64,000 nucleotides of DNA from an uncultured bacterium. GTDB taxonomy: Bacteria > Patescibacteriota > Minisyncoccia > Phycocordibacterales > PALSA-1337. The position numbers were made by a program, and so were the translations under genes. The stretch is taken from assembly GCA_963851055.1 (NCBI GenBank), contig CAWKMY010000006.1, positions 14,663 to 78,662 on the forward strand. Direction: 5' to 3'. Each line of letters starts with the position of its first letter. Position 1 is the first letter of the stretch. This document shows, piece by piece, positions 1,417 to 46,099 of this stretch. The notes beneath the pieces are model-generated. The model was not told the DNA's origin. It was given only the letters and a program-made list of their open reading frames with translations, and ran no database searches.

Positions 1417-1695
1417 ATGAAAAATCAATTGTTCGCAATGAAGATCAGACTCGGAAAACCAGCTGATCCAAAAAATCTATCGCTATGGAAAATTGGCCTC
1501 GTATTATTCATTGGAGGCCTTGTGATGCTAACTGCTTCGGCAATTGCCGGCAGTTTTTACTGGCCATACACTCCACCAGGATATGTTTCTGGCCTTTTGC
1601 TCTCTGGCATGGTCGCTGTTTTTCAGGCATTTCTGTTTCAATTTGTGAGCAACACTGTTTACCGTAAATCGGATGAACCTAGCCAAACCAGTTAA
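1417..1695 (+). CDS. Small hypothetical membrane protein (2 predicted TM helices)
   Basis: 92 aa ORF with two hydrophobic segments; no recognisable family. Confidence 0.35.
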   Translation: MKNQLFAMKIRLGKPADPKNLSLWKIGLVLFIGGLVMLTASAIAGSFYWPYTPPGYVSGLLLSGMVAVFQAFLFQFVSNTVYRKSDEPSQTS

Positions 1696-1823
1696 TCGGG
1701 ACTGAATAATAATCGCGCCGCAAGACTTCACTGTCCTGTGGCTTTTTTATATCTTTTGACATTTAACAGTATTCGATTAAGCTAGAGACAAACAGCAAAG
1801 AACAATCAAAACTAAAGGACACT

Positions 1824-2750: not shown

Positions 2751-2770
2751 AGCCATGACAGCAAATAATA

Positions 2771-2801
2771 CCGCGAAGCCATGAGCTCCGCGGCTTTTTT
2801 A
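2771..2801 (+). terminator. Rho-independent terminator after hom
   Basis: ccgcg/cgcgg stem with 13-nt loop followed by cttttttatt. Confidence 0.5.
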
Positions 2802-2820
2802 TTCTGCTATACTTCTCTTC

Positions 2821-4786: not shown

Positions 4787-5131
4787 ATGACCAGAGTAAA
4801 GAAAGCCGTTAATGCCCTGAAGAACCGCCGAAATGTCCTTCGCCAGACCAAAGGTTTCCGTTTCCGCCGTTCCAACACTGAGCGCGCCGCCAACGAAGCT
4901 TTGGCCCATGCCGGTGCATATTCATTCGCCCATCGTCGCGACAAGAAAGGTGACATGCGCCGCCTATGGAATGTAAAGATAAACGCCGCTCTCCGCCCTC
5001 TCGGCTTCACCTACTCAAAGTGGATAGGGGCCGCCAAGAAGAAAGGCATCGCCCTCGACCGCAAGGCTTTAGCTCATCTCGCTGAATTCAAGCCTGAAAT
5101 CTTCAAGAGGGTTGCGGAATCGGTTAAATAG
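4787..5131 (+). CDS. rplT: 50S ribosomal protein L20
   Basis: MTRVKKAVNALKNRRNVLRQTKGFRFRRSN... typical L20. Confidence 0.9.
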   Translation: MTRVKKAVNALKNRRNVLRQTKGFRFRRSNTERAANEALAHAGAYSFAHRRDKKGDMRRLWNVKINAALRPLGFTYSKWIGAAKKKGIALDRKALAHLAEFKPEIFKRVAESVK

Positions 5132-6605
5132 AGTACTCCTTCAACCTCTCCGGCACTATCGCCTTTAGTCCCAACTCATCATTTATCCTCTGCGCCAAAT
5201 GCATAGATGCGCCAGGCTCGCCCATGACGACGAATACCTGCTTCAAACGTATTTCTTTTGCACTATTATCTGGATCTCCTGCTGTCGCCACAAATTCAAC
5301 TAGGTGATCGCCGTCCTTATGAGCAGAATAGCCGTAGAGCGTCTCAATCTTTGCATTCACCTTTACTTGTTCGCCATGAATCTTGACCTTCTTTGCTCCA
5401 TCGGCCAATTCCCTGCCGAGTGAACCTGCCGCTTGATATCCGACGAGTAATATAGTGCTCTTGGGATCAGGAAGGAAATATGCTTCATGGCTGATGATGC
5501 GTCCGCCGACTGACATTCCTGAGCCTGCCAATATGATCTTGGCGCCTTTGAAATGTTCTATGCTACGCGACTCGCCTTGGCTTTCAACGAATGTGAGATG
5601 CGGAAATGAGAATATATCATCACCTGAAGCTATCTGCTTTTTTGCTTCATCGTTGAAAAGAGCTTCGCTCTGCTTATATATTTCTGTTACTTTCTGTGCC
5701 AATGGTGAATCGAAATATACCGGAACGGACGGTATGCGCTTTTCTTTCACCAGATTGTTGAGCTCATAGAGAAGTACCTGACTCCTATCTACAGAAAAAG
5801 CCGGAATGACGAGAGTGCCACCGCGGGCCAAGGTATCATTGATGACTTTCTCGAATTGAGGCAATCTTGTCTCACGTGGTTCGTGGTTTCGATCGCCATA
5901 GACGCTTTCCATGACTAGATAATCGACATCGCCTACTGGTTCAGTATCCCTTAGAATCGGCGCCGGCGAATTTCCCAAGTCTCCAGTAAAAAGAATTTTT
6001 GGTTATTGAACTTGATCACCGGATTTTTTTACACTCACCTCAATCATGGATGATCCTAAAATATGCCCAGCATCTTTCAAGAAAATTGATACGCAATCAC
6101 TTATCTTGAAATTCTCGTGATATGGAATAGTCTTCCACAATGGAAAAACCCGAGTAACATCATCGGCACTGTAAATAGGTTCACGACCATCTTCTTTTGC
6201 TTCGCTGGCCAAAATGTTGACAGCATCATTCAAGACCAATTCCGCCAATGCGCGCGTCTCTGACGTTGAATAAATAACTCCTTTGAATCCATCTTTGACC
6301 AATTTAGGAATGCGTCCAACGTGATCGAGGTGAGCATGTGTGACGATGAGTGCTGTTATAGAGCCAGTATCATAAGGAAACGCCTCACTATTTTGCTCAT
6401 TTGCCACGCGCTCACCTTGGACCATACCGCAATCTACGAGGATCTTCGTGCCGGTATTATCTTTGGCTCCATTGGAATCGACACTACCCGCCGTTTCCAA
6501 CAGGAAGTTGGCACCAGTGACTGTGCCGACGCCAGTACAGAAAGTCAGTTTGTTTTTTTGAGGCATATTGATGCTCATTATATGTGAGAAAGCGCCAATA
6601 ACCAA
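5124..6605 (-). CDS. MBL-fold beta-CASP ribonuclease (COG1236/RNase J-like), interrupted by a single in-frame TAA
   Basis: The N-terminal part (6605-6006) has the HAHLDHVG motif. The C-terminal part continues in the same frame after the stop at 6003-6005, with KILFTGDLGNSPAPILRDTEP, DYLVMESVYGDRNHEP and GYSAHKDGDHL beta-CASP motifs. ORFs 6003..6605 and 5124..5978 are both in frame 2 mod 3. Confidence 0.6.
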
Positions 6606-6816
6606 GGAAAATACTTTGGATATTTACTGGATTGAAAAACACCTGAACAGTCAGGCGTCCTTCAAGGATTGCGGGAGTATATAACCTGAATAAATCAGGT
6701 GGGATGTCTATCGCTGACATGCCGAAGCATAAGCGAATGTTTCTTCAAGAGATGATCGACTTCCCGTTTGAAATTGTTATAGGGTTTAACTCCCACAACC
6801 TGACCCAATTGTAGAC

Positions 6817-9609: not shown

Positions 9610-9648
9610 CCAGCATTTAATTGGTTTCGGCATGCTGGAGCCGTTTTT
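9610..9648 (+). repeat. Direct repeat copy 1 (39 bp) carrying a duplicated start region MPKPIKCW of the downstream membrane-protein gene
   Basis: ccagcatttaattggtttcggcatgctggagccgttt, near identical to 10131-10168. On the minus strand it encodes MPKPIKCWKEK-stop. Confidence 0.6.
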
Positions 9649-9767: not shown

Positions 9768-10154
9768 TTAAGACTCACAACTTTTTTCAAACTCTGACAC
9801 TGCCACTACTCCGATTGGCCCGGCAACCAGTGCCCCAACTGCAACAATCCCATCGCCAGTCAAGTTCAATGACGGCCAAACCATCATCGCCTTGACCCAA
9901 GCTACTGGACCGTGCCTTAAGTGGCCAATCGTAGACACTGCGCTTACGGCCCATAATGCCGTACCCATCGCTGTCACCAGCGCCCACACCATAGCCGCAA
10001 GAAACAGCGGCAATGATGTGGAGTCGTTGTCTGTAATGGTCAAATACCATAGCAGAAACGGCAGGATGGCCGGGCCAGCGATTACCGACACCATGTAGAA
10101 CTTTTTCAATAATTTCACATTATCCTTTTCCCAGCATTTAATTGGTTTCGGCAT
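9768..10154 (-). CDS. Hypothetical multi-pass membrane protein
   Basis: 128 aa, hydrophobic segments; start codon region lies inside repeat copy 2. Confidence 0.45.
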   Translation of the reverse strand: MPKPIKCWEKDNVKLLKKFYMVSVIAGPAILPFLLWYLTITDNDSTSLPLFLAAMVWALVTAMGTALWAVSAVSTIGHLRHGPVAWVKAMMVWPSLNLTGDGIVAVGALVAGPIGVVAVSEFEKSCES

Positions 10155-10168
10155 GCTGGAGCCGTTTT
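10131..10168 (+). repeat. Direct repeat copy 2 (39 bp), overlaps start of ORF 9768..10154
   Basis: Same 39-mer as 9610-9648; contains a 7-bp hairpin ccagcat/atgctgg followed by a T-run. Confidence 0.6.
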
Positions 10169-18644: not shown

Positions 18645-19085
18645 ATGTTGCTGTGTATGGACGAAATATACATCAAAGACTTCGATAAATGGAATGAATG
18701 CCAAAAGGCTCTTGATAAACAAGAATTCGAGGGATTTTGTCGTGAACGAGAAGTTTGGTGGTGCGCCTTGGGAGTGAATATTGGCTCGGAACAAGACGGT
18801 AAGAATGATTTATTTGAACGACCAGTACTCATTATCAAGAAGATCCGAAAAGATCTATTACGCATCATTCCACTTACAAGTAAAATAGAAAACCACGATG
18901 ACCGTATAACTGCGATCATTGCTGGAGAAAAATCCCAAATACTTCTCTCACAAGCTAAAACTATCAGCAGTAAGAGGTTATTAAGAAAAATAGGTTATGT
19001 ACGAATCCCATTATTCCAAGAGGTAATCATCCGTCTAGTCAAATCCATACTTGATATCCCTTACGAAAGCGAAACCCCGCTATAA
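18645..19085 (+). CDS. MazF/PemK/EndoA-family endoribonuclease toxin homologue (no obvious cognate antitoxin ORF)
   Basis: REVWWCALGVNIGSEQDGKNDLFERPVLIIK and SQILLSQAKTISSKRL closely parallel B. subtilis EndoA/MazF ([41 protein letters not shown]). Confidence 0.7.
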   Translation: MLLCMDEIYIKDFDKWNECQKALDKQEFEGFCREREVWWCALGVNIGSEQDGKNDLFERPVLIIKKIRKDLLRIIPLTSKIENHDDRITAIIAGEKSQILLSQAKTISSKRLLRKIGYVRIPLFQEVIIRLVKSILDIPYESETPL

Positions 19086-22207: not shown

Positions 22208-22400
22208 GGGGGACTGAATATAAAAAGCTCCACAGAGCCGTGGGAATAGACTACCAAAGCCGCTTGACAAAGTCAATGAAACGGCTATGATTGATTCCAA
22301 CGAGCAGGCAGGGACAAATTCCTGTAGGAAAAGCCATAAAAAGCTACTTGCCGAGCTGGCCTCCCCCGAAAGGGGGCGGTTTCGTCTCAACCTATGTTAG

Positions 22401-22428
22401 TTGTCCTAATATTCCTTCGTAGTATACT
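22401..22428 (+). promoter_or_regulatory. Sigma70-like promoter (TTGTCC-N16-TATACT) for the antisense cargo genes
   Basis: ttgtcc at 22401-22406, tatact at 22423-22428, ATG at 22431. Confidence 0.45.
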
Positions 22429-22430
22429 TA

Positions 22431-22943
22431 ATGTTAAATATGCTTAAAACAAGGTCACAACAACTGAACGAGCGTTTATACGAGAATGCAATCTTGTATT
22501 TTATCAAGTATTGCAACAATCAATACCTCGGCAAGACTAAGCTGAATAAGCTTTTGTACTACTTGGATTTCATCTCTTTCAGGGATACGACGAAGACCGT
22601 GAGCGGTGATTCGTATGTACATCAGGAATATGGTCCAGTACCCACTCACATGGATCAAGTATTAACCGAACTCAAAACAAAAGGAATTATTGAAACCGAG
22701 GCTATGCCATACAAAGACGGAGAAATGATCCGTTTTCAGATAAAGAAGACTGACTCCTTGAACGAGAATCTCTTCTCTAAGGATCAAAAAATCCTTTTGA
22801 AAGAAATCTGCGATGAATTCGGTAGTTGGTCAACTGACAAGATCGTGACGCAAACACACCTTGAAGCTCCATGGTTCTTCTCCAAGCCATTTGAAATAGT
22901 CGACTACAAATACGCTGAGGATATAGACTTTTTCCGAAAGTAA
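22431..22943 (+). CDS. Panacea-domain (DUF4065, SocA-like) putative antitoxin
   Basis: KLNKLLYYLDFISFRDTTKTVSGDSYVHQEYGPVP matches the DUF4065/Panacea core (KLxKLLYY...GxPxx...EYGPV). Confidence 0.55.
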   Translation: MLNMLKTRSQQLNERLYENAILYFIKYCNNQYLGKTKLNKLLYYLDFISFRDTTKTVSGDSYVHQEYGPVPTHMDQVLTELKTKGIIETEAMPYKDGEMIRFQIKKTDSLNENLFSKDQKILLKEICDEFGSWSTDKIVTQTHLEAPWFFSKPFEIVDYKYAEDIDFFRK

Positions 22944-22957
22944 TCTCTACTAACGCG

Positions 22958-23347
22958 ATGATCTGGATATATGTCGAACGCGAACAGTATGTCCGGATGT
23001 GCGAGAGGCTAAGGATTTCCACTGAATTGCGTGGAGCAATCAAAAGTTGGGCGCAGACGGTATCGAATAAAAGTGAAGCCCCTCGTTTGAAGCTAGTGTA
23101 TCGCTCACCGAATAATCGCTATGAAGCATGGAATGCTGGAATACCTAACCCAGAGAGCAATCGCGGCAAAAGAGGCGGATATCGCATTGTCTATTTCCTT
23201 GATCTTTTCGAAGGATCAATAAACTTGGATTTCATCGAGGAACGGAAGAACCTCGGATTTGGCAATGAACACCCCAGAGATAAAGAGAGATACAATGATT
23301 ATGTACGCGTGCTGAAAGGATATATCTTGAGATTATGCGCGGAGTAG
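22958..23347 (+). CDS. RelE/HigB/Gp49-like putative toxin
   Basis: NRGKRGGYRIVYFLD resembles the G(K/R)xGGYR(V/I)(I/V)Y signature of RelE/ParE-superfamily Gp49/HigB toxins. The gene starts 15 nt downstream of the Panacea gene. Confidence 0.45.
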   Translation: MIWIYVEREQYVRMCERLRISTELRGAIKSWAQTVSNKSEAPRLKLVYRSPNNRYEAWNAGIPNPESNRGKRGGYRIVYFLDLFEGSINLDFIEERKNLGFGNEHPRDKERYNDYVRVLKGYILRLCAE

Positions 23348-23371
23348 GGAAAAAGCTGTTATACTTCCGAT

Positions 23372-24139
23372 ATGAAAGAGTTTGAGCAAATAATAAAAGA
23401 GGCAGAAAAGCAAGAAGAAATCGTAGGCTTGATCTTGCTCGGTTCACGTGGCAAAGGATTTGAGAATGAATACTCCGATTATGATGCAGTGATGATCGTG
23501 AAGGATGAGTTTGCTGGTGCTTTTAGAGAAAGATATGGAAAACGAGATTTTAACAATGTTGAACTCGTGATAATGTCCATTTCTGACTTCAAGAAATATG
23601 CAGAATGGGGCAGTCCCGAATCGTGGGACAAATACGATTATGCCCATACAAAAATACTTGTAGACAAGACTAACGATTTACCTGCTCTTGTCAAAGAAAA
23701 AGGATTTGTGCCAGCAGAAAAATTGGAAGAGTTTATTGGTGGCTGTATAGATGGATATGTGAATGGGGCATATCGTTCGATAAAATGTATCCGTAATAAC
23801 AATCTATTCGGTGCACGCTTGGAAGCGTCTAACTCGATGCTTGACTTACTAACCTGTGTTTTCGCCTTCAATGGCAGATGCAGGCCTTTTCTTGGGTATG
23901 TCGAGAAGGAACTCGAGAAGTATCCGCTGGAATATCTCCCGTGGCATTCCATCGAACTTCTGGCAAAAATAGAAAAAGTGCTGGCAACTGCAGACCTTAA
24001 AACTCAACAGGAACTACTTATGGGAATTGAAAAGATGAGCCGTGAGACTGGGCATGGCAAAGTGTTCGATGGCTGGAAGGGCAAGGATAAGTGGGCGATG
24101 GAATATAAGCCCGCAGTAAAATCAAAAACCAAGCAGTAA
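23372..24139 (+). CDS. ANT(6)/AadK-family nucleotidyltransferase (streptomycin adenylyltransferase-like)
   Basis: EIVGLILLGSRGKGFENEYSDYDAVMIVKDEF matches the ANT(6) N-terminal GSR...SDYD(I/V)...V.D nucleotidyltransferase motif; about 255 aa as in AadE/AadK. Confidence 0.6.
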   Translation: MKEFEQIIKEAEKQEEIVGLILLGSRGKGFENEYSDYDAVMIVKDEFAGAFRERYGKRDFNNVELVIMSISDFKKYAEWGSPESWDKYDYAHTKILVDKTNDLPALVKEKGFVPAEKLEEFIGGCIDGYVNGAYRSIKCIRNNNLFGARLEASNSMLDLLTCVFAFNGRCRPFLGYVEKELEKYPLEYLPWHSIELLAKIEKVLATADLKTQQELLMGIEKMSRETGHGKVFDGWKGKDKWAMEYKPAVKSKTKQ

Positions 24140-26063: not shown

Positions 26064-26411
26064 CTATTTTGTGTATTTTATAGGCGCTTCCTGAACAGAT
26101 AATACTAGAGTATCTTCAGCCACCTCGTAACCATGTGGAACACCTTTAGGAAGATCAATGACCTGCCCTGATTTATAATCAATATTTTTGTCTCCGAGAA
26201 TAGCTATGCCTTTACCTTTTAGTATATACAACTTAGAAGAGGCCTCATTGTGTGAATGAACCGGGTCTATAACGCCTTTGGCGAGAAAGGCAAATACAAT
26301 TTGCTGACCATCTTCAAATACAGGAAAGATAAAAACATCTCGTTCCTCCTTACCTTTCCCAAGGTGTTTATGAGTGAGTAGATTCTTTAATATAATAAAT
26401 AAATTATCCAT
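26064..26411 (-). CDS. Cupin-domain protein
   Basis: 115 aa, two-His cupin motifs (HSHNEASSKLYILKG ... GVPHGYEV). Confidence 0.5.
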   Translation of the reverse strand: MDNLFIILKNLLTHKHLGKGKEERDVFIFPVFEDGQQIVFAFLAKGVIDPVHSHNEASSKLYILKGKGIAILGDKNIDYKSGQVIDLPKGVPHGYEVAEDTLVLSVQEAPIKYTK

Positions 26412-26418
26412 ATTAATA

Positions 26419-27093
26419 TTATTTTCTACCCCAAACTAATACGCGTTTTCTGATTCCATAACCTGGACGGAAATACCTTAAGTACTTAGAACCAACTGAT
26501 TTATAACCAGATCTTTTAAGAGAATCTCTAAGATATTTTGCAGAGAACCAATATATATTTTTAAAACCATCGTGTATCTGTACTGGCACTTTCTTTGTCG
26601 GTGAATCATTTGCAATAAATAATACCCCGTCTTCCTTTAAAGCCTTTTTTGCCTCTGCCAGAAATTTTCCCACAGATGCATTTTTATCTGCTAAATGACC
26701 AATCACCCCATCGCTTAAGATCAGATCAAAATGATTATTGAGGTCGAATTTTCCTGTTGCATCTAAATACTTAACCTTGAGTCCTTTGGCCATAGCAAAC
26801 TTCAAAGCTTGTATCGACACATCGGTCGCCAACACATTGCAACCACTATCGGCTAGTCTCTTCTCTATAAAAGCATTGCCGCAACCAATACTTAATATAT
26901 TTGGCTTTTTTACCCTCTTTAGAAGAGATAGTATATCTGAGCAAATTGCTTCTAGATAATCTTTGTCAAAAGTTGATGGAGTAATCGAGCTCCCAACATT
27001 TTTTCCCTTTTCCCAAAGCTCAAATCTAGACCGACCATCTTGTACTGGTTCTTCATACATCCTCACTGTTTCTTTTATCTCCGACAATCTCAT
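26419..27093 (-). CDS. Class I SAM-dependent methyltransferase
   Basis: Motif I ILSIGCGNAFIEKRLADSGCNVLATDVS and downstream acidic motif LILSDGV. Confidence 0.6.
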   Translation of the reverse strand: MRLSEIKETVRMYEEPVQDGRSRFELWEKGKNVGSSITPSTFDKDYLEAICSDILSLLKRVKKPNILSIGCGNAFIEKRLADSGCNVLATDVSIQALKFAMAKGLKVKYLDATGKFDLNNHFDLILSDGVIGHLADKNASVGKFLAEAKKALKEDGVLFIANDSPTKKVPVQIHDGFKNIYWFSAKYLRDSLKRSGYKSVGSKYLRYFRPGYGIRKRVLVWGRK

Positions 27094-28263: not shown

Positions 28264-29082
28264 ATGGCATCCTCATATATCCCCGACACCATAGACTTCC
28301 TTGGGCAAAACCCGGTCTGGCTACTCGCCCTAGCGACGGCCATCATCCTGACTATCACCCTCATCAATCACATCCTTTGGCGCAAACTGAAGGAAGGTGA
28401 GAAATTGAAATATGAATTCATCACCATCATGGCCCACAAGTTCCGCACGCCACTCACCCATATCAAGTGGATATCGGACGAGTTGGTAGGAACGGTTCAA
28501 GACCAGCGGATAAAAGAGGGCCTGGAGCAGATACGGCGAGCCGGTACAAATCTAGTGGGACTGACCACCACTCTACTAGAACTGACCGATTCGAGAAAAG
28601 AAAAGACCTTATACGCTTTCGAACGGACAAACTTGTGCGACTTTGTCCGTACCATAGGCGAAGCAGCCAGAAGGACATTTCAAGAGAAGAACATTTCCTT
28701 CTCCGTAGTCTGTGACGATGGACCCGTTTTCGCCAAAATAGATAAGCCGCGCATGGAATTTGCCGTGCAAGTGCTCATGGATAACGCCTTTGCTTACACT
28801 CCCACCGGCAAAGTTGTGGCGATAACGGTCTCGAGGTCCGGACGCAAAGCGAACATATCCGTCAAAGATAACGGTATAGGTATCAGGCCGGAGGATATGA
28901 AGAAGATTTTCGGCAAATTCTTCCGGGCAGGCAATGCCCAGGCTATGGACACGGAAGGGTTCGGCGTCGGTTTATATCTAGCCAGATCAGTGGTAGAAAG
29001 GCACCATGGAAAGTTGGAAGCCTTCTCGGATGGAGAGGGCTTCGGCTCTACGTTCAAGATAGTTTTGAGAGCGATCAAATAG
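28264..29082 (+). CDS. Orphan sensor histidine kinase (1 TM, HisKA + HATPase_c)
   Basis: H-box MAHKFRTPLTHIKWISDEL; N, G1 (DNGIGI) and G2 (GFGVGL) boxes; no response regulator adjacent. Confidence 0.7.
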   Translation: MASSYIPDTIDFLGQNPVWLLALATAIILTITLINHILWRKLKEGEKLKYEFITIMAHKFRTPLTHIKWISDELVGTVQDQRIKEGLEQIRRAGTNLVGLTTTLLELTDSRKEKTLYAFERTNLCDFVRTIGEAARRTFQEKNISFSVVCDDGPVFAKIDKPRMEFAVQVLMDNAFAYTPTGKVVAITVSRSGRKANISVKDNGIGIRPEDMKKIFGKFFRAGNAQAMDTEGFGVGLYLARSVVERHHGKLEAFSDGEGFGSTFKIVLRAIK

Positions 29083-29189: not shown

Positions 29190-30041
29190 TTAGAGTTTGG
29201 TTTTCTTCTTGCCAACCTGACGGCGAGAGACGATGAAAATATTCGAGTATTTCTTTGGAGTCCTGGTCTTCTGACCCTTACCTGCTGGCTTACCCCAGCG
29301 AGTCTTGAGTCGGCGTAGACCGCGACCAGAGCGCTGTTCACCTCCGCCATATGGGTGATCTACTGGGTTCTGGGCGGAGCCACGAACTGTAGGACGTATA
29401 CCCATCCAACGGGTACGACCTGCTTTGCCGATATTAACCAGACGACTCTCTTCATTGGAAACGGCGCCGATAGTGGCCCAAGCATCTTCGTGGACTTTGC
29501 GTACTTCGCTGGAAGGCATCTTTATGTGCGTATAGCTCTGGTCATTAGCGACTACTTGACCGAATGAACCGGCGGAACGAACTAGTTTAGCTCCTGAACC
29601 TGGCTTGATCTCTATATTGAAAATGAATGTGCCGACAGGGATCTTCTTCAAAGGCAGGCGATTGCCCGTCTCTATAGGAGCGTGCTCGGATACCATAAAT
29701 GAGTTACCGACTTTCATCGTCTTTGGCAAAAGCACATAGCGCTTTGTGCCGTCCTTGTATGCCACGAGGCCGATGTAGCCAGTACGGAAAGGATCGTACT
29801 CTATGGTTTTGACCGTAGCTATGATGTCTTTCTTGTCATAATTGAAATCTATCTCACGGTAGAGCTTGGCATGACCTCCTCCCTTGTGGCGAACAGTGAT
29901 ACGACCAAAGGCATTGCGTCCCATGTCGCGCTTCCAACCATGAGTCAGAGGCTTGTAAGGCTCTGAAGCGGTCAGATATTGCTTGAACGGCAATACTGTC
30001 ATGTGGCGGCGAGATTTGGATGTTGGGCGGAATGATTTCAT
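29190..30041 (-). CDS. rplB: 50S ribosomal protein L2
   Basis: 283 aa, L2 signature incl. GGGEQR-like region. Confidence 0.9.
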   Translation of the reverse strand: MKSFRPTSKSRRHMTVLPFKQYLTASEPYKPLTHGWKRDMGRNAFGRITVRHKGGGHAKLYREIDFNYDKKDIIATVKTIEYDPFRTGYIGLVAYKDGTKRYVLLPKTMKVGNSFMVSEHAPIETGNRLPLKKIPVGTFIFNIEIKPGSGAKLVRSAGSFGQVVANDQSYTHIKMPSSEVRKVHEDAWATIGAVSNEESRLVNIGKAGRTRWMGIRPTVRGSAQNPVDHPYGGGEQRSGRGLRRLKTRWGKPAGKGQKTRTPKKYSNIFIVSRRQVGKKKTKL

Positions 30042-30084
30042 GGAAGTAAATATGCAAATATACGAATGATGCTAATGATACGAA

Positions 30085-30585
30085 TTATACAAAGTCGATT
30101 TTGTCGCCCGCTTTCAGCGTGACCAACGCTTTGCGGAAACCAGCCACTCTACCCTTCTTGCCGCGGAGGAAGACCTTCTTTGCCGGAGCATTCATGACTG
30201 CGACTTTGACCGGGGTGACTTTGTATAGAGCCTTCACGGCCTTGGCGATAGAATGCTTGTTGGCTGAACGTCCGACTTCGAAAGTATAGACGCCAGTTTG
30301 GCTCAAAAGGCCTGATTTCTCTGTGATGCGAGGGCGGATGATAGAATCTGTGACACTAGAGAAAACACCGGCCGGCAATGCTGCACCTGACTTTGCGGCG
30401 GCGGCATCTTTGGTGACTAAAGCACGAGCGACCTTCTCCGGCTTAACTGATGAAGACCTTCTCGCGCCTTTCTGAGGAGTGCCACCTTTCTTTCCGGCTA
30501 CAGATGAGGCCTTAGCCAGATTGGCTTCCGCCTGAACATGGCTCTGTGCGTGCTTCTTATCTGTTCTAAATCCGAATAAAGGCAT
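30085..30585 (-). CDS. rplW: 50S ribosomal protein L23 with about 70-aa A/K-rich N-terminal extension
   Basis: C-terminal L23 domain (YTFEVGRSANKHSIAKAVKALYKVTPVKVAVMN); N-terminal low-complexity region. Confidence 0.8.
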   Translation of the reverse strand: MPLFGFRTDKKHAQSHVQAEANLAKASSVAGKKGGTPQKGARRSSSVKPEKVARALVTKDAAAAKSGAALPAGVFSSVTDSIIRPRITEKSGLLSQTGVYTFEVGRSANKHSIAKAVKALYKVTPVKVAVMNAPAKKVFLRGKKGRVAGFRKALVTLKAGDKIDFV

Positions 30586-30596
30586 GGTAGTTAAGG

Positions 30597-31280
30597 TTAT
30601 TTGGTGGTTTTAGCTGCACTCGGAGTCTTAGCTGAAAAAGCTTTCAACGATTGTTCTGGATTGGCGATGATCAGATACTTGTGATTCATGACCGAGACCG
30701 GATTTATATTGCGGAATTCCTCAACTGAAACATTACCAAGGTTACGGAAGCTCTTTTCGATGATGGTTGACTTGGAATCTGTAGCAATGATAGCGGTATT
30801 GACCTTTTTTGTGGCGAGTTTTTCATAGCCCTTAATTGTGGCCAATGAGGAAAGAATCGTCTTTGCGTCTTTTGCCTTTGGGGCGGACATATTCAAAGTA
30901 TCGACAAAGAGAATGTCGCCATCTTTGAACTTGCGTGACAATACAATGAAAAGCGCCTTGGAACGAACCTTCTTGTTGATCTTACGGGAATAATTCTGAT
31001 CATTCCTAGGACCATGAGCTATACCACCACCTACCCAGATAGGAGAACGTGTGGAACCGTGACGAGCGCGGCCAGTACCCTTCTGCTGCCAAGGCTTCTT
31101 ACCACCACCACGGACTTCTCCACGGGTCTTGGTATGAGCGACGTTATCGCGAGAGTTATTATTCATGAGACGAACGACTTCGTGGACCAAGTCAGCATTC
31201 CATGGCAGGCCGAATACTCCTTCAGGGAGTTTCATCTTCCCTGTTTCTTTGCCTGATTGATTGTAGATTTTTGTTTCCAT
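30597..31280 (-). CDS. rplD: 50S ribosomal protein L4
   Basis: 227 aa, L4 signature. Confidence 0.9.
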   Translation of the reverse strand: METKIYNQSGKETGKMKLPEGVFGLPWNADLVHEVVRLMNNNSRDNVAHTKTRGEVRGGGKKPWQQKGTGRARHGSTRSPIWVGGGIAHGPRNDQNYSRKINKKVRSKALFIVLSRKFKDGDILFVDTLNMSAPKAKDAKTILSSLATIKGYEKLATKKVNTAIIATDSKSTIIEKSFRNLGNVSVEEFRNINPVSVMNHKYLIIANPEQSLKAFSAKTPSAAKTTK

Positions 31281-31304
31281 TTTATTGAATCAAATTTCGC
31301 CCTA

Positions 31305-31929
31305 TTAGCCGACGATCTCGACAAGCGTTCCGCGGCGTCCCGGGATAGCTCCGGCAACATACAGGATATTCTCTTCTGGGTCAACGTGAGCGATCTTCAG
31401 ATTCTTTACGGTGATGCGATCCGATCCCATGCGTCCAGCCATGCGCATACCTGTCGGTACGCGGTTACGCAAACCTCCGCCGATGGAACCTGGCTCGCGC
31501 TCGCTGTGCTTCTGGCCGTGAGAACGAGGACCTCCGTGGAAACCATGGCGCTTGACCACACCCTGAAAGCCTTTACCTTTTGAAACAGCCGAGACAACGA
31601 CAACGTCACCAGCTTTGAATTGTGAGAGCTCTACTTTGTCGCCGATCTTTAAGAGCAGGGGCTATCTGACCCGGAGTCTGGTCCGTTCGAAATTCAGATA
31701 AAGCGGCAAAATTACCAAGATCTTTGAAATGGCCTTTTTGAGCCTTATTTATCTTATTGGCATTGCGCTCACCTTCTCCTACCTGAACAGCTTCATAGCC
31801 GTCATTTTCCTTTGTCCTCAATTGGGTGACAATATTACCACGGGCGACAACCAGAGTAACTGGAATAGCCGCGCCTGAGGCATCGTAGATTTGGGACATG
31901 TTTAACTTTCTTCCAAGAATAAATTTCAT
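31305..31929 (-). CDS. rplC: 50S ribosomal protein L3, split into two ORFs by an apparent +1 frameshift near 31647-31652
   Basis: N-terminal ORF 31606-31929 (MKFILGRKLNMSQIYD...) and C-terminal ORF 31305-31559 (VKRHGFHGGPRSHGQKHSER...). The conserved GDKVELSQFKAGDVVVVSAVSKGKGFQGVVKRHGF is readable in the second frame upstream of the annotated Met. The frames meet at cttaaagatcgg. Confidence 0.8.
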
Positions 31930-31951
31930 GGCGGTAAGCGGTCGTATTGGG

Positions 31952-32350
31952 CTACATCATCTTTACGTCTATATTGACGCCAGATGGCAGACTCATATTG
32001 GTAAGGGCTTCTATAACTTTCGGATTTGGATTGATGATATCGATCAAACGCTTGTGCACTCTCATCTCGAACTGCTCACGGCTATTCTTGTCGATGAAAG
32101 AAGAACGATTGACTGTGTACTTCTTTATCTCCGTCGGCAACGGCACCGGACCGAGGATCTCTACGTCGTACCTAGACGCAGTATCCATGATCTGACGAAG
32201 GCTAGCGTCGAGAATCTTGTGCTCATAAGCACGGACGCGAATGCGGAGGTGTGGCAGGGCGCCCTCAACCTTGGCCTTCTTTGCGCGAGCAACCTTGGCG
32301 GCCGGCTTTGCGTGAGTCTCTTTTTTAACTGTTTCTTTGTGAGGAGCCAT
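31952..32350 (-). CDS. rpsJ: 30S ribosomal protein S10 with about 30-aa K/A-rich N-terminal extension
   Basis: S10 core LRIRVRAYEHKILDAS...; N-terminal MAPHKETVKKETHAKPAAKVARAKKAK. Confidence 0.85.
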   Translation of the reverse strand: MAPHKETVKKETHAKPAAKVARAKKAKVEGALPHLRIRVRAYEHKILDASLRQIMDTASRYDVEILGPVPLPTEIKKYTVNRSSFIDKNSREQFEMRVHKRLIDIINPNPKVIEALTNMSLPSGVNIDVKMM

Positions 32351-32383
32351 TTTAATATTGCGTGCTTTATTCGTCGATTCGCA

Positions 32384-33571
32384 TTAAGCAATGATCTTGG
32401 TAACAACTCCGGCACCGACGGTCTTGCCACCCTCGCGGACGGCGAAACGCATCTTCTCTTCGAGAGCTACTGGGGCTACGAGCTTGACCTTGAAGGTCAC
32501 GGTGTCACCTGGCATGACCATCTCCACCTTCTCGGCGAGGGTCACTTCTCCAGTAACGTCAGTAGTACGGATATAGAATTGAGGCTTGTAACCTGTGAAG
32601 AATGGAGTGTGGCGACCGCCTTCTTCCTTCTTCAAAACGTAAACCTCTGACTCGAATTCTGTGTGAGGCTTGACGGAACCCGGCTTGGCCAAAACCTGAC
32701 CGCGGGAAACGTCATCCTTGGCTGTACCACGGAGCAATACTCCGGCATTGTCTCCAGCCATACCTTCCTTGAGAGACTTGTTGAACATTTCGATACCTGT
32801 CACAACTGTCTTCACCGTGTCGCGGAAACCGACGATCTCGACTTCCTCACCAACTTTGATGATGCCGCGATCGATCTTGCCTGTGACGACTGTGCCACGA
32901 CCTTCGATCGAGAAGATGTCTTCTATAGGCATGAGGAAAGGCTTGGCTGTATCGCGTACAGGCTCAGGAATATAGGTATCCAAGGCTGTCATGAGAGCAT
33001 CGATAGACTTTGACCATTCTGCGTCTCCGGCGAGAGCGAGAGAAGCTGAACCGCGGATAACCGGGACATTCTTGCCATCGAACTGGTTCTTGGTCAGAAG
33101 TTCGCGAACTTCCTCTTCAACGAGGTCGATAAGGTCTTTCTCAGGAACGAGGTCACACTTGTTGAGGAAAACAACGATCTTCGGCACACCGACTTGGCGG
33201 GCGAGAAGAACGTGCTCACGAGTCTGAGGCATGACGCCGTCAGTGGCGGATACGACGAGGATAGCTCCGTCCATCTGGGCGGCGCCTGTGATCATATTCT
33301 TGATGAAGTCAGCGTGGCCTGGACAGTCGATGTGAGCGTAGTGACGAGTAGGTGTCTCGTACTCTACGTGCGAGAGAGAGATGGTGACGGTCTTTGTTGC
33401 ATCGCGGACTGTACCACCCTTGGTGATATCTGCGTAAGCCTTTATATTGGCCAATCCTTTCTTGGACTGAACCGCGAGGATAGCGGCGGTCAAAGTAGAC
33501 TTGCCGTGGTCGATGTGACCGATGGTGCCGACGTTAACGTGCGGCTTTGTGCGATTGAATTCTGCTGCCAT
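32384..33571 (-). CDS. tuf: Elongation factor Tu
   Basis: [29 protein letters not shown]-motifs; 395 aa. Confidence 0.95.
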
Positions 33572-33804: not shown

Positions 33805-35325
33805 CTAGTGAGAATTTAGGTACTGCTGTACTGCGTTCCAGACGGAAGCCGAGAGCGAAGTCTGAAAGTTATACGAGGTCGTCCCTACGCATGCCGAACC
33901 ATTCCATGTCTGACCGGCTACAGGACAAGTGTACTGAGCAGAGTTGAACAGAGACGAATCCCATATCCAGTTGGCTCCGGAAATGCGAGCCCAGCTTCTA
34001 TAGAGGTTATTTGACGGTATAACTAAGGTGGATCCTCCGGATGATTGTTCCGTACCATCGCTCGAGGCTATGATGCTCCCTCCCGAAGATATGGTGTAAT
34101 CAACTCCGGCTGGATTTCCCCACCATCCCCATTCTATGGACGGATTCGGAATGTTTGTAACCGTTATAGCTATAGTATTGCTACCTTGATTGACGGCAGA
34201 AGTGATGTCGTAAGTCTTAGGTGATGTGAAGTTAGTCGCATTCACATCTCCTGAAGCAACAGGGATACCATTCACAGACACGGAATATCCGTTATCAGCC
34301 GCTATAGACAGAGACACTGGGCTGGTTGTCGAAGTCAAATTGAATGTCTTGGTGAAGGTTATGACTTGCGGAGGAACGTTGGCGTAAGAGACTGGAGCCG
34401 ATGGAGGAGTCTGCGTCTGCGTTGAGCACGTGTAGCTAGGCGGACAATTCGAGGTGACACCGGTGCAAGTGTATCCTGAAGGACAAGTGGTCGTCTGACC
34501 AGGAGGAGTACAGACATAACCTGCAGGACAAGCAACAGGGGTAGCAGTCACATTCACCGTCGTTGTCGTCTGTGCGGACAAGCCTGCGCTGTCGGTCACC
34601 GAGAATGTAATCGTGTAATTCCCCGCTGAAGCGTATGAATGGGTGAACGTAGAATTCTGTACAACAAGGCTAGCGCTGTTCGCACATACATAACCGACAG
34701 GGCAGGCTGAACCATTATCTCCCCAATTGACCGAGTAACTCAACGAACCATTCTGCGGATCACTTGCATTGACCGCCCAAGTACCTGTCTGACCGACCGT
34801 GAGTGTCGTCGGGAACGTCCCGCCGGAGATGACCGGGGGTTGGGAAGTCGGCTGCTGTGTCGTGGTACAAACGTAACCATTGCAAGACGCCTGTGAGATA
34901 GAACTATTGTATAGAGCGGAATCCCATATCCAGCTAGCGCCAGGAATAGAAGTCCATGAATAGAGAATCTTGCTTTGCGGAATAACTATAGTCGATCCGC
35001 CGGAAGATTGTTCTGTGCCATCGCTCGAGGCCAGAGTCGCCCAGTTCTGAGTTACCTTGTAGTCCAGTCCGGCCGGATTGCTGGCCCAGATAGTGCCGGT
35101 AGTCGCTGGATTGACGATATTGTCCACCGTTATAGCCAAAGTGTTGCTTCCCTGATGGATAGCCGAAGTTATATCCACATTCTGCGGTGAATAGAAGTTC
35201 GTCTCTGAATTGTTCGTCGAGACATTCGTGCCATTCACGGAAACGGAGAATCTGTTATCAGCCGCGATGGCGAGAGTCACCGGACTGCCGGTCTGGTTCA
35301 CATTGAAGGTCTTGGTGAAGGTCAC
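33805..35325 (-). CDS. Extracellular Cys-rich repeat protein (PKD-like domain, two about 170-aa internal repeats); probably the C-terminal part of one giant gene with 35333..37678
   Basis: CP(A/V/S)GY(V/T)CT repeats; PKD-like WGDNGS...AGNYTITFSVTDSAG; duplicated ITFTKTFN...SSDGTEQSSGGST...WIWDS modules. GTG start with no signal peptide. The frame stays open upstream (…NDQVVTFTKTFN), matching the internal repeat. Confidence 0.55.
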   Translation of the reverse strand: MTFTKTFNVNQTGSPVTLAIAADNRFSVSVNGTNVSTNNSETNFYSPQNVDITSAIHQGSNTLAITVDNIVNPATTGTIWASNPAGLDYKVTQNWATLASSDGTEQSSGGSTIVIPQSKILYSWTSIPGASWIWDSALYNSSISQASCNGYVCTTTQQPTSQPPVISGGTFPTTLTVGQTGTWAVNASDPQNGSLSYSVNWGDNGSACPVGYVCANSASLVVQNSTFTHSYASAGNYTITFSVTDSAGLSAQTTTTVNVTATPVACPAGYVCTPPGQTTTCPSGYTCTGVTSNCPPSYTCSTQTQTPPSAPVSYANVPPQVITFTKTFNLTSTTSPVSLSIAADNGYSVSVNGIPVASGDVNATNFTSPKTYDITSAVNQGSNTIAITVTNIPNPSIEWGWWGNPAGVDYTISSGGSIIASSDGTEQSSGGSTLVIPSNNLYRSWARISGANWIWDSSLFNSAQYTCPVAGQTWNGSACVGTTSYNFQTSLSASVWNAVQQYLNSH

Positions 35326-35332
35326 GACTTGA

Positions 35333-37678
35333 TCATTCGGACCAACATTGAGAGCTGTTGAGACCGGGGTCGGAGTACGTGGTAGGCGTTTCGCTGTAAC
35401 ATGTATAACCAGTCGGGCAATTGCTTATACTGACTGGAGTGCAGACATAACCAGCAGGACAGCCTGATGAACCACCACCTGGAACTGAACATATGTAACC
35501 AGCAGGACAGACAGCTGAAGCGCCTCCATTAAACATCACCACAGCTTTCAAATTATCTAGACCAGAAGTGATGGAGTACGCATGAAGGTTAGTCGCACTG
35601 GTACCATAATCTATCGCCGTCATTTGAGCTATGTTGGCGCCATTTACGGTAGCCGCCGAACTACTAAGGGTACCGCTTAGATTTATCTGACGAGAAGAAC
35701 CTGGCGGAAGATACCAATAATTTTCATTATCTCCTGGCACTAGGGATGGAACCGCTCCGCTAGCGACAATGTTCGGTATGATATTTCCATTTCCTGAAGC
35801 AAAGTGTAGAGAGGAGTAGGTATTCTGCGCGACAGAAGTGCTTACGAATATCGGATTATTCCCCGCTATCAGAGTGAAAGAGAAAGTGACAGGCTGGACA
35901 CAAGAGACCATTGCATTATCACAAGTCTGAGAGCCAAGCGTCGACGAAGTATTACTGATTTGGACGCCGCTAGAGGCGGAAGAGAAGGTGATGGTGTTAC
36001 CGACTATAAGACTTTGCCCAGCAGATACATTATTATAGTTAGAATCGAGTGCCACAAGTGCGCTCGTAGGCAACTCAACTAATGCATTCGAGCTATTGAG
36101 ATTATGATTCGTATCTTGAGCCACGCTACCTAGGATCGTGATCGGCACAGAGACATCCGCGGGCAGGGGGATGTTGAAATTAGTGAACGATACGCTCTTG
36201 TTATCGCTAGCAATCGAAGTTTCAGCATACGTTCGACCGCCTGCTTTTATAAATAGATTAGTGAAGAAACTGGATATATTCGTATTTCCTCCGTTTACGA
36301 TCACGCCGATAGTAAGCGCTTGAAGCGTAGAAGGACTGCCTTGTGACTTCACATCAAACACCGCGAGTGGCACATTTTGAGTCACTGCTGAAGTCGAGAT
36401 CTGCACTGTGCTCGCAAGTGGCGAAGACGGATCGAGAGAAGCGGTTATTCCTGCGCCACCAATCGGTTGTGGATTGATTGGCTGAGGCTGGGCACAACTC
36501 TTATTCAAGGCCGCACGAGTCGCCGGACCAAAGAAGCCTGTAGCAGGTATGCCTACGCTAGCCTGATATTTTGCCACAGCGGCGGCTGTTTGATAACTAT
36601 ATACGCCCTTTTGCTGGCGACCGGAAGAGACGGCCGGAATGTCATAACCGTTGCCCATGAGCCATGTCTGTAGGGCAACGACGTCAGCACCTGTAGATCC
36701 AATAGTTAAGTTGTTACTGAATACATAGCAAGACGTCGAACCGGCTGATTGAACTTGGAAGCTGACCTGATTGCTGGCACCGGTATTTTCATTTTTGACT
36801 TGAATACTATGATAGCCATTTGTCAGAGACGGCGCGACAAATGTCATAGATGTACCGTCAGTCGATATACCAGTAGTCACATTGTACAAAACACTGTTAT
36901 CTATAAATATGACGGAATTCGTAAGCCGCTGACCCGATATCGTGAGTGTCTGTCCCGGGCTGACGATACTCGGCGTGACGGAAGTTATATAAGGAGAAAC
37001 TTCGCCGACGATGGTGACCGCATTGCTCTGATTCGTTGGAACACTGGCAAATACCGATGATCCATCAGTGCTTGGAGGCATTGAATCACCGTAAACACTC
37101 TGAAGGCTTGCCGTGTAGCTTCCAGCGAACATTTGCTTTGGATTGACACTAGCGGAAACACCAAAACTAGTAGTCTGTCCCGGTGCTACAACGAACACAT
37201 TCCTGCCATATGAATCGACACTGCTGCTTGCAAGGGAAGAATTAGACGGAGTAATGACTACTTGACCAGAGCCTTGGCTATGAGCCGATGAAATGAACTG
37301 TACGGCGGCTCCATTCTGATATATTTCAATACCTTGAGTATTACCATGAACTGTAAATGATCCCGTAAGGGTAAGAGCAGCTTCGCCATGTTGGGAATCA
37401 TAAGTAAGCGCCAAAGAAGGTGTTCCGTTTATCGTAACCGTGGCATCTGTAGTCGGAGCTACAACACCCCCGCCGCCACCTGAAGAACCTCCGCCTGAAT
37501 TATTAGGCGTACAAACATATCCTACTGGACAATTAGTGACCGGAGTTATTGGCGTACATGTATATCCAGCCGGACAAGCTACCGTCTGCGCCTCTGCCGC
37601 AGGAGCTGGCATAAAAGCGACTAAGGCGAGAGAGAATGCTACAACCGGAACGATAACCGAAAACATGGCTCTTTTCAT
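35333..37678 (-). CDS. Secreted giant surface protein with signal peptide, CPxGYxCT Cys-rich repeats and a PG_binding_1-like peptidoglycan-binding domain
   Basis: Signal peptide MKRAMFSVIVPVVAFSLALVAFMPAPAAEA; LTIGSTGADVVALQTWLMGNGYD...GFFGPATRAALNK PGBD; many CPAGYVCT units. Confidence 0.6.
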   Translation of the reverse strand: MKRAMFSVIVPVVAFSLALVAFMPAPAAEAQTVACPAGYTCTPITPVTNCPVGYVCTPNNSGGGSSGGGGGVVAPTTDATVTINGTPSLALTYDSQHGEAALTLTGSFTVHGNTQGIEIYQNGAAVQFISSAHSQGSGQVVITPSNSSLASSSVDSYGRNVFVVAPGQTTSFGVSASVNPKQMFAGSYTASLQSVYGDSMPPSTDGSSVFASVPTNQSNAVTIVGEVSPYITSVTPSIVSPGQTLTISGQRLTNSVIFIDNSVLYNVTTGISTDGTSMTFVAPSLTNGYHSIQVKNENTGASNQVSFQVQSAGSTSCYVFSNNLTIGSTGADVVALQTWLMGNGYDIPAVSSGRQQKGVYSYQTAAAVAKYQASVGIPATGFFGPATRAALNKSCAQPQPINPQPIGGAGITASLDPSSPLASTVQISTSAVTQNVPLAVFDVKSQGSPSTLQALTIGVIVNGGNTNISSFFTNLFIKAGGRTYAETSIASDNKSVSFTNFNIPLPADVSVPITILGSVAQDTNHNLNSSNALVELPTSALVALDSNYNNVSAGQSLIVGNTITFSSASSGVQISNTSSTLGSQTCDNAMVSCVQPVTFSFTLIAGNNPIFVSTSVAQNTYSSLHFASGNGNIIPNIVASGAVPSLVPGDNENYWYLPPGSSRQINLSGTLSSSAATVNGANIAQMTAIDYGTSATNLHAYSITSGLDNLKAVVMFNGGASAVCPAGYICSVPGGGSSGCPAGYVCTPVSISNCPTGYTCYSETPTTYSDPGLNSSQCWSE

Positions 37679-37924
37679 GGTTTTATGTGATTACGAACTA
37701 ATTAATAGATAATGGACGACATCCAAATACTTGCTCAAGTATACCCCCCCCCGACGAATTTGCACAATATAAGTTGTGAACAGTCGAGATGCAAGGAGAA
37801 AGCGACGCTCGCCGTCTGGCAAGCATCGCTTGGGTAGTGGAAACATTATAGCGCGTCACAAATTGCATGCAAAGAGGTTATCCACATGTTAAAGTGAAAC
37901 CGTGCACGCAGACATTTACCTAAA

Positions 37925-40656: not shown

Positions 40657-42802
40657 TTACTTCCTCTTCTCCTTTATACCCTCTGCAACGTTAGCCGGAA
40701 CGACTTCATAGTGATCGAATTCCATCTGAGCAGAACCTTGGCCGGAAGTCATGGAACGAAGAGCCGTGGTATAGCCGAACATCTCTGACAATGGAACCTT
40801 GGCGATGATAGAGATGACTTGGCCCTTTGGATTGGAGCCCTCGATGGTACCGCGCTTGGAAGCAATGGAACCATTGACGTCACCCATGTACTTCTCCGGA
40901 CAGACGACTTCGAGCTTCATGATAGGTTCGAGAATGACAGGCTTGGCGCGCTTGGCTGCATCTTGGAAAGCCTGGGAAGCGGCTATCTTGTAAGCGATCT
41001 CTGATGAGTCAACGTCGTGGTAAGAACCGAAAGTGAGCTCGCAGGAAATGTTAACAAGTTTGAAACCGGCGACGATACCGCGATCGAGTGCCTCACGAAC
41101 ACCTTTCTCGACGGCTGGAATAAATTCATTCGGAATGACGCCGCCTTTGATGGAGTTGATGAATTCAAAATCATCATAGCGGTGAACTGTCTTGGGTATC
41201 TTCTCCCCTTCCGGCCATGGTTCCATAGGTTTCGAGAGTCAGACGGACGTGACCGTATTGACCCTTGCCTCCGGTCTGCTTGATATATTTGTGTTCAGCT
41301 TCAGCGGTGCCGAGGATGGTCTCACGATATGCTACCTGTGGCTCACCGACATTGGCTTCAACGCCAAATTCGCGCTTCATACGATCCACCATGATCTCGA
41401 GGTGAAGTTCTCCCATGCCTGAAATAATAGTCTCGCCTGTTTCCTGGTTGCTGGAGATACGGAATGTTGGGTCTTCATTGCCGAGCTTGCGCAGAGCCAA
41501 GCCCATTTTCTCCTGATCAGCCTTGGTCTTCGGCTCGATGCGTAGAGACACAACCGGTTCCATGAATTTGATAACTTCGAGGACTATCGGGTGTTCCTCA
41601 TCGCAGAAAGTATTGGAAGTGAGGGCGTCTTTCAGTCCTACGGCGGCAGCGATCTCTCCGGCAAAGACTTTCTTGACCTCTTCACGCTTGTCGGCTTGGA
41701 GGCGGACGATACGACCGAGGCGTTCCTTCTTGCCAGTGGTGGAATTGTAAATATATGAACCAGCTTCTATGGTTCCGGAATAGACACGGAAGAATGTCAG
41801 AGCTCCGACGAATGGATCATTCTGAAGTTTGAATGCCAAGGCGGAAAAAGGTTCTTTGTCATCTGCGTGGCGGAGTATCTCTTCGCCTGTATTCGGGTCA
41901 ATACCCTTTATTGGAGGCATATCTAGAGGCGAAGGCAGGTAGTCGACGACGGCATCGAGAACGAGTTGAACGCCTATATTCTTCAAGGCGGAACCAGTGA
42001 AGACTGGGAACATCTTGTTGTCTATGACGGCACGGCGGACGATTTTCTTGAGCTCATCAACCGAAGGAGTTTTACCATCGAGATAAGAGGCCATGGCCAC
42101 ATCATCATGCTCGACGATCTTTTCTATGAGCTCGGCATGATATTTCTTTGCATCGGCGGCGAGTTCATCAGGAATCTCTTTTTCAACTATTTTATTTCCC
42201 ATTTCTCCCTCGAAATAGTATGCCTTCATCTTTAGAAGATCGACTACCCCAATGTGATTGCCCTCTGTGCCTATAGGGAGCTGGAAACGAACGGCCTTCG
42301 GACTCAACCTTTCGAGAATTGATTTGAATGAAAATTCGAAAGAAGCTCCCATGCGGTCCATTTTATTGATGAAACAAAGACGTGGCACATTGCCTTCGTC
42401 GGCATAGCGCCAGTTGGTCTCTGACTGTGGTTCAACGCCGGCAACGCCGTCGAAAACCACAACTGCTCCGTCGAGTACGCGTAGAGACCTTTTCACTTCT
42501 ACAGTGAAGTCGATGTGTCCAGGAGTGTCGATGATGTTGAAGCGAACCATCTTCGACTTATCGGTCGGAGGCATGTATGACGGATTCCAGAAACAAGTGA
42601 TAGCGGCAGCCGTGATGGTGATACCGCGCTCGCGCTCCTGTTCCATCCAGTCTGTGACAGTGTCACCTTCGTGCACTTCACCGATCTTGTGCGTCATTCC
42701 TGTATAGAAAAGAATACGCTCTGATGTAGTCGTCTTGCCCGCATCGATGTGGGCAATGACTCCGAAGTTACGTACTTGAGAGAGTGGGTAGTCGCGGTTC
42801 AT
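40657..42802 (-). CDS. fusA: Elongation factor G, split into two ORFs by an apparent +1 frameshift at about 41224-41236
   Basis: N-terminal ORF 41174-42802 (AHIDAGKTTTSERILFYTG...GQYGHVRLTLET) and C-terminal ORF 40657-41226 (MEPWPEGEK...). The frames switch inside aacctatggaaccatgg, a near-tandem aaccatgg duplicate with one extra t. Confidence 0.85.
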
Positions 42803-45402: not shown

Positions 45403-46045
45403 CGAATATATAAAAGTAAATATTCACATCGCCACCCCAGTAAACAATTGAAACACCCACGGAATTATCGGCGCCACTACTTGCCAGAGAAAAAAAATGA
45501 CAATTAGAGCAAAAATCGGTGAATTCCTTTCCATCGTCATTCTTACTCGGCCATATTGATTGGGTAAAACGAAAAGAGCAATTTGGAACCATCAAGCGGC
45601 GGCAGATGGAATGAAATTAAAGACAGCTAAGATAATATTGATAATAACTATATAAGAAATGATCGTAATAAAAGGCGCCAACGAAGTGGCAGAAGCAGCA
45701 TCAGTTATTCCGCCAGCGACAAAGCGCAAATAGTCCCAAAAACCAAAGCAATCAGAAGATTCGAAGCTGGCCCAGCAGCCGCGATGAGGAATTCACCTTG
45801 GCGTTTATTCTTGAGATTATATGGATTGTAAGGAACAGGCTTGGCCCAACCAAACGTGGAGCCTGAGTAAGCGAGGTGATAAGAGGCACTATTATAGAAC
45901 CGAGCGGATCTATATGTTTGAGCGGATTCAAAGTCAGCCTGCCAGCCAATCGCGCCGTAGGATCACCCAGCGGTCAGCCATATAGCCATGGGAAAGCTCG
46001 TGAAGGATGACGGATATTATGAGAATGACTATAGATAATATAGTA
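45400..46045 (-). pseudogene. Site-2 protease / peptidase M50 family gene disrupted by multiple frameshifts
   Basis: Minus-strand reading gives MLTILSIVILIISVILHELSHGYMADRWV (HExxH) then stop. After shifts come ...[16 protein letters not shown]... and [35 protein letters not shown]. Confidence 0.5.
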
Positions 46046-46099
46046 AGCATGATTGTTGACCTCCAAACCAATCAATGATAGCATACGATTCTCACTCTT

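Follow-up and report, generated by a model that had tools for sequence, protein, structure and literature searches.

A one-base frame break in the ribosomal protein L3 gene of an uncultured Paceibacteria/Parcubacteria contig is probably a consensus error

Can a gene for ribosomal protein L3 be carried in two reading frames, or does the break in frame exist only in the assembled consensus? The question is raised by rplC, the L3 gene, at positions 31305-31929 of the minus strand in the 64-kb stretch of DNA analyzed here (the window). The gene starts with the ATG at 31929, ends with the TAA at 31305-31307, and measures 625 nt, that is, 3n + 1; a single uninterrupted L3 frame is not what the window contains. 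Codons 1 to 94 are in frame 0, and codons 95 to 207 are in the +1 frame.

Two halves of L3 in two frames

Reading rplC from its ATG in frame 0 gives MKFILGRKLNMSQIYD...TDQTPGQIAPALK, 94 residues of good L3 sequence. Past codon 94, the same frame continues through 13 out-of-frame codons (codons 95 to 107, DRRQSRALTIQSW) that resemble nothing, and it then meets a TGA at 31606-31608. The uncorrected N-terminal open reading frame (ORF) (31606..31929, minus strand) is 107 aa long, and its codons 1 to 94 are genuine L3. The C-terminal part, made up of codons 95 to 207 and the stop (31305..31646, minus strand), is found only in the +1 frame, which is open from 31661 and reads (K)IGDKVELSQFKAGDVVVVSAVSKGKGFQGVVKRHGF...GTLVEIVG.

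Both parts were recognized as L3 by profile searches. TIGR03625, the NCBIfam equivalog for bacterial L3, matched the N-terminal half over profile positions 2 to 85 (E = 6.5e-22, 78.4 bits) and the C-terminal half over profile positions 89 to 201 (E = 8.9e-41, 139.9 bits), each unrepaired half scoring under the profile cut-off of 142.9 bits. Deletion of one base in CTTAAAGATC produced a 207-aa L3 that matched positions 2 to 201 of the 202 in the profile with 224.4 bits, above that cut-off; the repaired protein also matched PF00297 (E = 8.5e-15). In a protein alignment, the repaired L3 kept every invariant column and was 88 to 92% identical to its closest homologues among the matches listed, which are metagenome proteins of uncultured Paceibacteria/Parcubacteria (candidate phyla radiation [CPR]/Patescibacteria). 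Because the two halves and the repaired protein all match TIGR03625 in register, the pattern is not a chance one. The original prediction that the N- and C-terminal halves of L3 lie in different frames was therefore borne out, both by the length of the gene and by the profile positions of its halves.

The gene stands where an L3 gene is expected. On the minus strand, tuf (32384-33571), S10 (31952-32350), L3, L4 (30597-31280), and L23 (30085-30585) follow one another in S10-operon order, with rplC between rpsJ and rplD, and a related locus (L085) has the same order. A scan of positions 31000 to 32500 returned 3 promoter-like elements (1.3 ± 1.3 in shuffled sequence) and 3 terminator-like elements (1.7 ± 1.1 in shuffled sequence), both near background. 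No Pfam family matched the antisense plus-strand ORFs that lie over rplC (31257-31583, 31729-31878, and 31898-32650).

Several other features of the window are recorded here in their own right. Relative to typical bacterial proteins, both L23 (166 aa) and S10 (132 aa) have a long basic extension at the N terminus. As the extensions are also present in the relatives L081 and L085, they are characteristic of the clade rather than erroneous. Accessory genes (at 18645-19085, 22297-24139, 26064-27093, and 28264-29082) for a MazF/PemK toxin, a protein with a SocA/Panacea antitoxin domain, a nucleotidyltransferase, a cupin, a methyltransferase, and a histidine kinase break up the ribosomal-protein operon, and different inserts are found at similar places in relatives. 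A DUF3800-II RNA motif (22297-22361, 53.5 bits) precedes the gene with the SocA/Panacea antitoxin domain. The window also contains a perfect 38-nt direct repeat, with copies at 9610-9647 and 10131-10168 (521 nt apart), that includes a 7-bp hairpin (CCAGCAT...ATGCTGG). Both copies of the repeat contain a start codon on the minus strand, and the eight codons that open the frame (MPKPIKCW) are identical in the two. A 128-aa ORF (9768-10154) begins in one copy, and the frame begun in the other runs for 11 codons before it stops.

The frame junction and candidate recoding signals

Which base is the surplus one? We placed the junction by aligning the repaired protein with 17 close homologues and the DNA with five related genes and by tabulating the codons at the junction for the 30 closest loci among those listed. 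The DNA, codon, and protein alignments agree on the sequence CTT AAA G ATC (31644..31653, minus strand), with one surplus nucleotide, and they uphold the coordinates first proposed for the frame change. The candidates are the A at 31646, the G at 31647, or one A of 31648-31650. The protein reads L-K-I-G-D-K if the G or one A of AAA is deleted and L-K-V-G-D-K if the A that follows the G is deleted. All 15 of the closest loci listed (73 to 91% identity) read AAR GTN GGN GAY AAR (K-V-G-D-K), several of them with exactly AAA GTC GGC GAC, and the simplest repair is thus to delete the A at 31646. On the most parsimonious reading of the alignments, the surplus base would be this A (GTC to GATC), which lies outside any homopolymer, although alternatives remain. 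The original prediction had put the extra base in the short A-run; this is one of several equivalent repairs, but it is not the most parsimonious one, as the 15 closest loci favor the A at 31646.

We then asked whether the junction looks like a site of programmed +1 frameshifting. One comparison is with prfB, the gene for RF2, whose site (CUU UGA C) resembles the rplC junction in the +1 direction of the shift and in having CUU at the shift point. The prfB site is conserved in most bacteria, and it combines an in-frame stop in the A site with an upstream Shine-Dalgarno (SD)-like stimulator. The rplC junction, in contrast, is without a stop, a slow codon, or an SD-like stimulator, conservation of the prfB type is absent from it, and there is no autoregulatory logic for L3. 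Its A site is occupied by AAA, a common codon (33.2 per thousand across 25 genes of the window called with confidence), and no in-frame stop occurs at the junction. Neither GGAGG nor AGGGGG is present near the site in CCGGGTCAGATAGCCCCTGCT, and no SD-like element stands 3 nt upstream of the CUU. The 87 nt of downstream sequence folds at -17.1 kcal/mol compared with a shuffle mean of -18.4 (z = +0.45), which gives no sign of a downstream structure. The zero frame does reach two rare codons, CGG and CGA (1.1 and 1.4 per thousand), two codons later.

A second likeness is to the heptamer of Ty1, CUU AGG C. Both sites have CUU followed by A, and a Leu-tRNA could re-pair on UUA; at the rplC junction, re-pairing from CUU to UUA is formally possible for tRNA-Leu(UAG). 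Ty1 needs the rare codon AGG, whereas the rplC junction has the common AAA, and Ty1 is a eukaryotic (yeast) retrotransposon system, whereas rplC is bacterial. ARAGORN found no tRNA genes in the window and only a tmRNA gene. The tmRNA gene lies at 461-823 on the minus strand (Rfam, 106 bits), and its tag peptide is predicted by ARAGORN to be AKTVSPYFTERDFAFALV.

Transcriptional slippage offers a third likeness. In reduced endosymbiont genomes, essential genes with an apparent frameshift in the DNA can nonetheless be expressed, and rplC looks alike in its DNA. Rescue of this kind depends on long poly(A/T) tracts, with runs of roughly 9 or more A/T required. The A-run at the rplC junction is AAA only and therefore far too short for slippage, and the extra base probably lies outside the run.

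Relatives of the locus and constraint on the gene

Is the frame break shared with other members of the family? Among the L3 homologues scored, each of the best 120 is 192 to 222 aa long and covers at least 95% of the query. Related loci, at least 166 of them from genome and metagenome collections, were read by tblastn. In every one of the 166 listed, one segment crosses residues 80 to 110 in a single frame, and none has the shift site or the shifted architecture. A search with the 107-aa ORF found the frameshifted tail in one entry (P0121, 97 aa), which begins at the second Met. P0121 and the 542-aa fragment of elongation factor G (EF-G) described below are one-member clusters, and both come from one 213,759-bp NCBI/ENA contig. 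Exact matches of EF-Tu, SecY, S10, L23, S3, and both fusA fragments likewise led to this contig. The gene calls of the public record for rplC are two products of 97 and 84 aa.

No same-species sequence across the rplC junction, shifted or unshifted, was found in the collections searched. A degenerate DNA pattern for GDKVELSQFKAGDVVVVSA, the peptide just downstream of the site, had no match in metagenome contigs, and a protein-guided scan of the same metagenome collection returned only relatives of at most 83% identity among the matches listed. The repaired L3 (I and V versions, with both possible starts) and the repaired EF-G (K and E versions) were not present in a collection of 15 billion proteins. 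Two contigs of the same strain or species, each under 2 kb, were found via the exact L23 protein. The Logan contig L167 (ERR10755936_1021956) is 100% identical to window positions 29323-31184 and ends 121 nt short of rplC; the JGI contig L168 (sample 3300037166) is 99.4% identical over window positions 29575-30704 and also ends before rplC. A lead from S10 (P0199) was considered as a same-species copy and rejected, as it belongs to a different species (81% identity).

The sequence downstream of the shift is under strong constraint. Over its 113 codons in the +1 frame, dN/dS was 0.024 to 0.087 against six relatives, in comparisons in which dS is about 1 or more, and the downstream part is as constrained as the upstream part. 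These comparisons indicate that rplC is neither decaying nor split and that the frame break is confined to one assembly, in a gene whose sequence is intact and constrained apart from it.

Other defects in the window and the origin of the extra base

The rplC break does not stand alone. The gene for EF-G, fusA (40660-42802, minus strand), is split into 542 and 189 aa by a one-base insertion at 41228..41238. In a tblastn search with the EF-G of L085, residues 1 to 523 were found in frame -1, ending at 41234, and residues 524 to 714 were found in frame -2, starting at 41232; the fragments are 97 to 98% identical to this EF-G, the nearest one listed, on both sides of the break. The junction reads CTC G AAA CCT, with the extra base at or beside 41233. 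Since 25 relatives have K or R at the junction codon, the G at 41233 is likely the surplus base. A 189-aa EF-G from JGI (P0184) was considered as an independent copy of the break and rejected, as that gene is merely cut by a contig end.

The insertion sites of fusA and rplC are unrelated sequences, and CTC-G-AAA in fusA permits no P-site re-pairing. A motif common to both sites (for example, a GATC methylation site or a four-base codon) was sought and rejected, only the adjacent AAA being shared; GATC is not enriched in the window (284 observed and 248 expected).

Three further genes carry defects. A surface protein of about 1,300 aa, in which repeated CPAGY(T/V)C motifs accompany PG_binding_1, TIG, and PKD domains, has a +1-type frame change at 35334..35390 (minus strand), an interval that includes the run GACCCCGGTC. 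It is present as open frames of 785 and 539 aa (35336-37690 and 33808-35424), whereas its homologue in L081 is a single 1,290-aa gene. Frame-by-frame reading of an M50 (site-2 protease) gene (45427..46050, minus strand) against relatives gave six pieces and five frame changes, namely, four 1-nt deletions, of which two fall in T4-T5 runs, and one 1-nt insertion, all within 620 nt. This gene is the densest cluster of defects and lies in the most AT-rich part of the window (GC 0.42). Its dN to relatives is 0.13 to 0.29, compared with 0.23 between two intact relatives, and its divergence is not raised; either the consensus is of poor quality at this place or the gene became a pseudogene very recently. 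In a TTHA0252-like beta-CASP metallo-beta-lactamase RNase, an in-frame TAA at 6003..6005 (minus strand) lies between ORFs 6006-6623 and 5127-6002, and the joined protein aligns across the TAA to residues 39 to 426 of Thermus TTHA0252 (PDB 2dkf; E = 2e-71). Its defect is of the substitution type and not a frameshift. The cluster of frame problems in the original prediction thus holds for fusA, the surface protein, and M50 but not for the RNase. Of the strongly coding genes, rplC and fusA were the only ones in which a codon-usage frame scan of the whole window found intragenic switches, and the remaining flags of the scan are normal gene boundaries. In total, the 64 kb contains eight indels and one nonsense codon, with two of the indels in indispensable genes.

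Frame errors were also seen in some of the relatives. In L002, a Nanopore-only metagenome-assembled genome (MAG) locus, fusA (1261-3439) alternates between two frames at other positions. The MFD prefix of its isolate name suggests the Microflora Danica study as its source, which used Nanopore-only assemblies (PMC12313526). Among L3 entries, P0178 fuses S10 to L3 by read-through and has stretches that are out of frame, and P0180 has a local frame error near the C terminus of L3. None of the frame errors in L002, P0178, and P0180 is at the position of the break in the window.

What, then, is the origin of the extra base in rplC? The original prediction had named two options. A sequencing or assembly indel is supported by the single assembly, the constrained halves, and the at least seven further indels and nonsense codon of the window, whereas programmed +1 frameshifting is opposed by an unconserved site with a common AAA, by the lack of an SD-like element and of structure, and by a fusA motif unlike that of rplC. 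On the strength of these sequence comparisons, we consider it very probable that the extra base is a sequencing or assembly indel in the consensus, and we infer that it is absent from the organism's DNA. A consensus error is the simplest explanation because unrescued breaks in both rplC and fusA would be non-viable, because no recoding signal is shared between them, because the defects are found in a single assembly, and because, apart from the breaks, conservation of these genes is perfect. Assembly errors that vary with platform, assembler, and coverage account for many purported bacterial pseudogenes (Cooley & Wright 2024, PMC11017572), and Nanopore errors are mostly indels that shorten the called genes of MAGs (PMC8103633). 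The window resembles such artifactual pseudogenes in its single-base indels and internal stop in conserved and essential genes and in having several defects per contig that are unique to one assembly; it differs from typical ones in that the errors cluster strongly in M50 and the favored inserted bases lie outside homopolymers. On the most parsimonious placement, neither the rplC nor the fusA insertion lengthens a homopolymer, and so these insertions are not of the kind most typical of long reads, which weighs against an artifact, as does the CUU-A at the junction, where a Leu-tRNA could formally move its pairing from CUU to UUA in the manner of Ty1. With five of the eight indels in one 620-nt gene, the errors are non-uniform, and M50 could be a true pseudogene. 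An insertion that is real but unrescued appears unlikely. It would be a recent loss-of-function allele (in a minority or non-viable subpopulation or in relic DNA) or the product of a chimeric strain consensus, and the viable population would keep an intact rplC. The absence of decay in the pieces fits a very recent event equally well, the extra bases lie outside homopolymers and so are not the most typical platform error, and a MAG consensus can mix strains, such as that of the 99.4%-identical L23-region variant in another metagenome. Against it, breaks in both rplC and fusA within 64 kb are incompatible with a replicating lineage, the five indels of M50 at normal amino-acid conservation are noise-like and not mutation-like, and in the collections searched none of these alleles turned up in a second assembly.

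The remaining explanations would have the cell make L3 from the sequence as it stands. In programmed +1 frameshifting, the tRNA-Leu on the P-site CUU would slip to UUA and decoding would resume at AAG-AUC to yield a full-length L3 that matches normal L3 in length and sequence. The CUU-A that the junction has in common with Ty1, the CUU that it has in common with prfB, and the rare CGG and CGA met by the zero frame speak for such a shift, yet we regard it as very improbable: the relatives listed, the nearest at 91% amino-acid identity, are all unshifted, the closest of them read AAR GTN, and fusA is shifted at an unrelated site. An abundant, stoichiometric ribosomal protein would moreover require a shifting efficiency of near 100%. 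That the base is genuine and fixed in the lineage, with an efficient lineage-specific +1 shift at CUU-AAA-G (CUU to UUA) and with EF-G rescued at its own site, is extremely improbable. We give almost no credence to a split L3, in which two polypeptides would assemble on the ribosome. Two ORFs are indeed present (107 and 84 aa), as are two products in the public record, but the downstream frame offers no start before the GTG at 31559, and initiation there would lose the conserved GDKVELSQFKAGDVVVVSAVSKGKGFQG segment and drop 29 residues (95 to 123), about 23 of them invariant and including SKGKGFQG. The N-terminal piece would carry the 13 nonsense residues at its end, and 0 of the 166 related loci listed are split.

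Under a consensus error, rplC would be an ordinary, functional bacterial L3 gene whose copy in the contig carries one spurious nucleotide, inserted when a metagenome-assembled Parcubacteria/Paceibacteria genome was sequenced or assembled. The true gene would most probably read ...GCT CTT AAA GTC GGC GAC AAA... (A-L-K-V-G-D-K) and encode one 207-aa protein, and a raised rate of indel and substitution errors in the same contig may also have broken fusA, the surface protein, M50, and the RNase. The rplC break is most likely not a biological feature of this organism. A real and fixed insertion would amount to a new case of recoding in a core ribosomal protein, to which nothing found here points, and the translation apparatus of this CPR bacterium would have to tolerate or suppress +1 frameshifts generally, which would be unusual. 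The main value of the finding lies in quality control: the record contains broken copies of the universal marker genes rplC and fusA, which shorten the called proteins and can distort marker-gene phylogenies and completeness estimates, and in a candidate-phyla-radiation genome such breaks could be mistaken for pseudogenization or recoding. The broken sequences can be replaced by the repaired ones.
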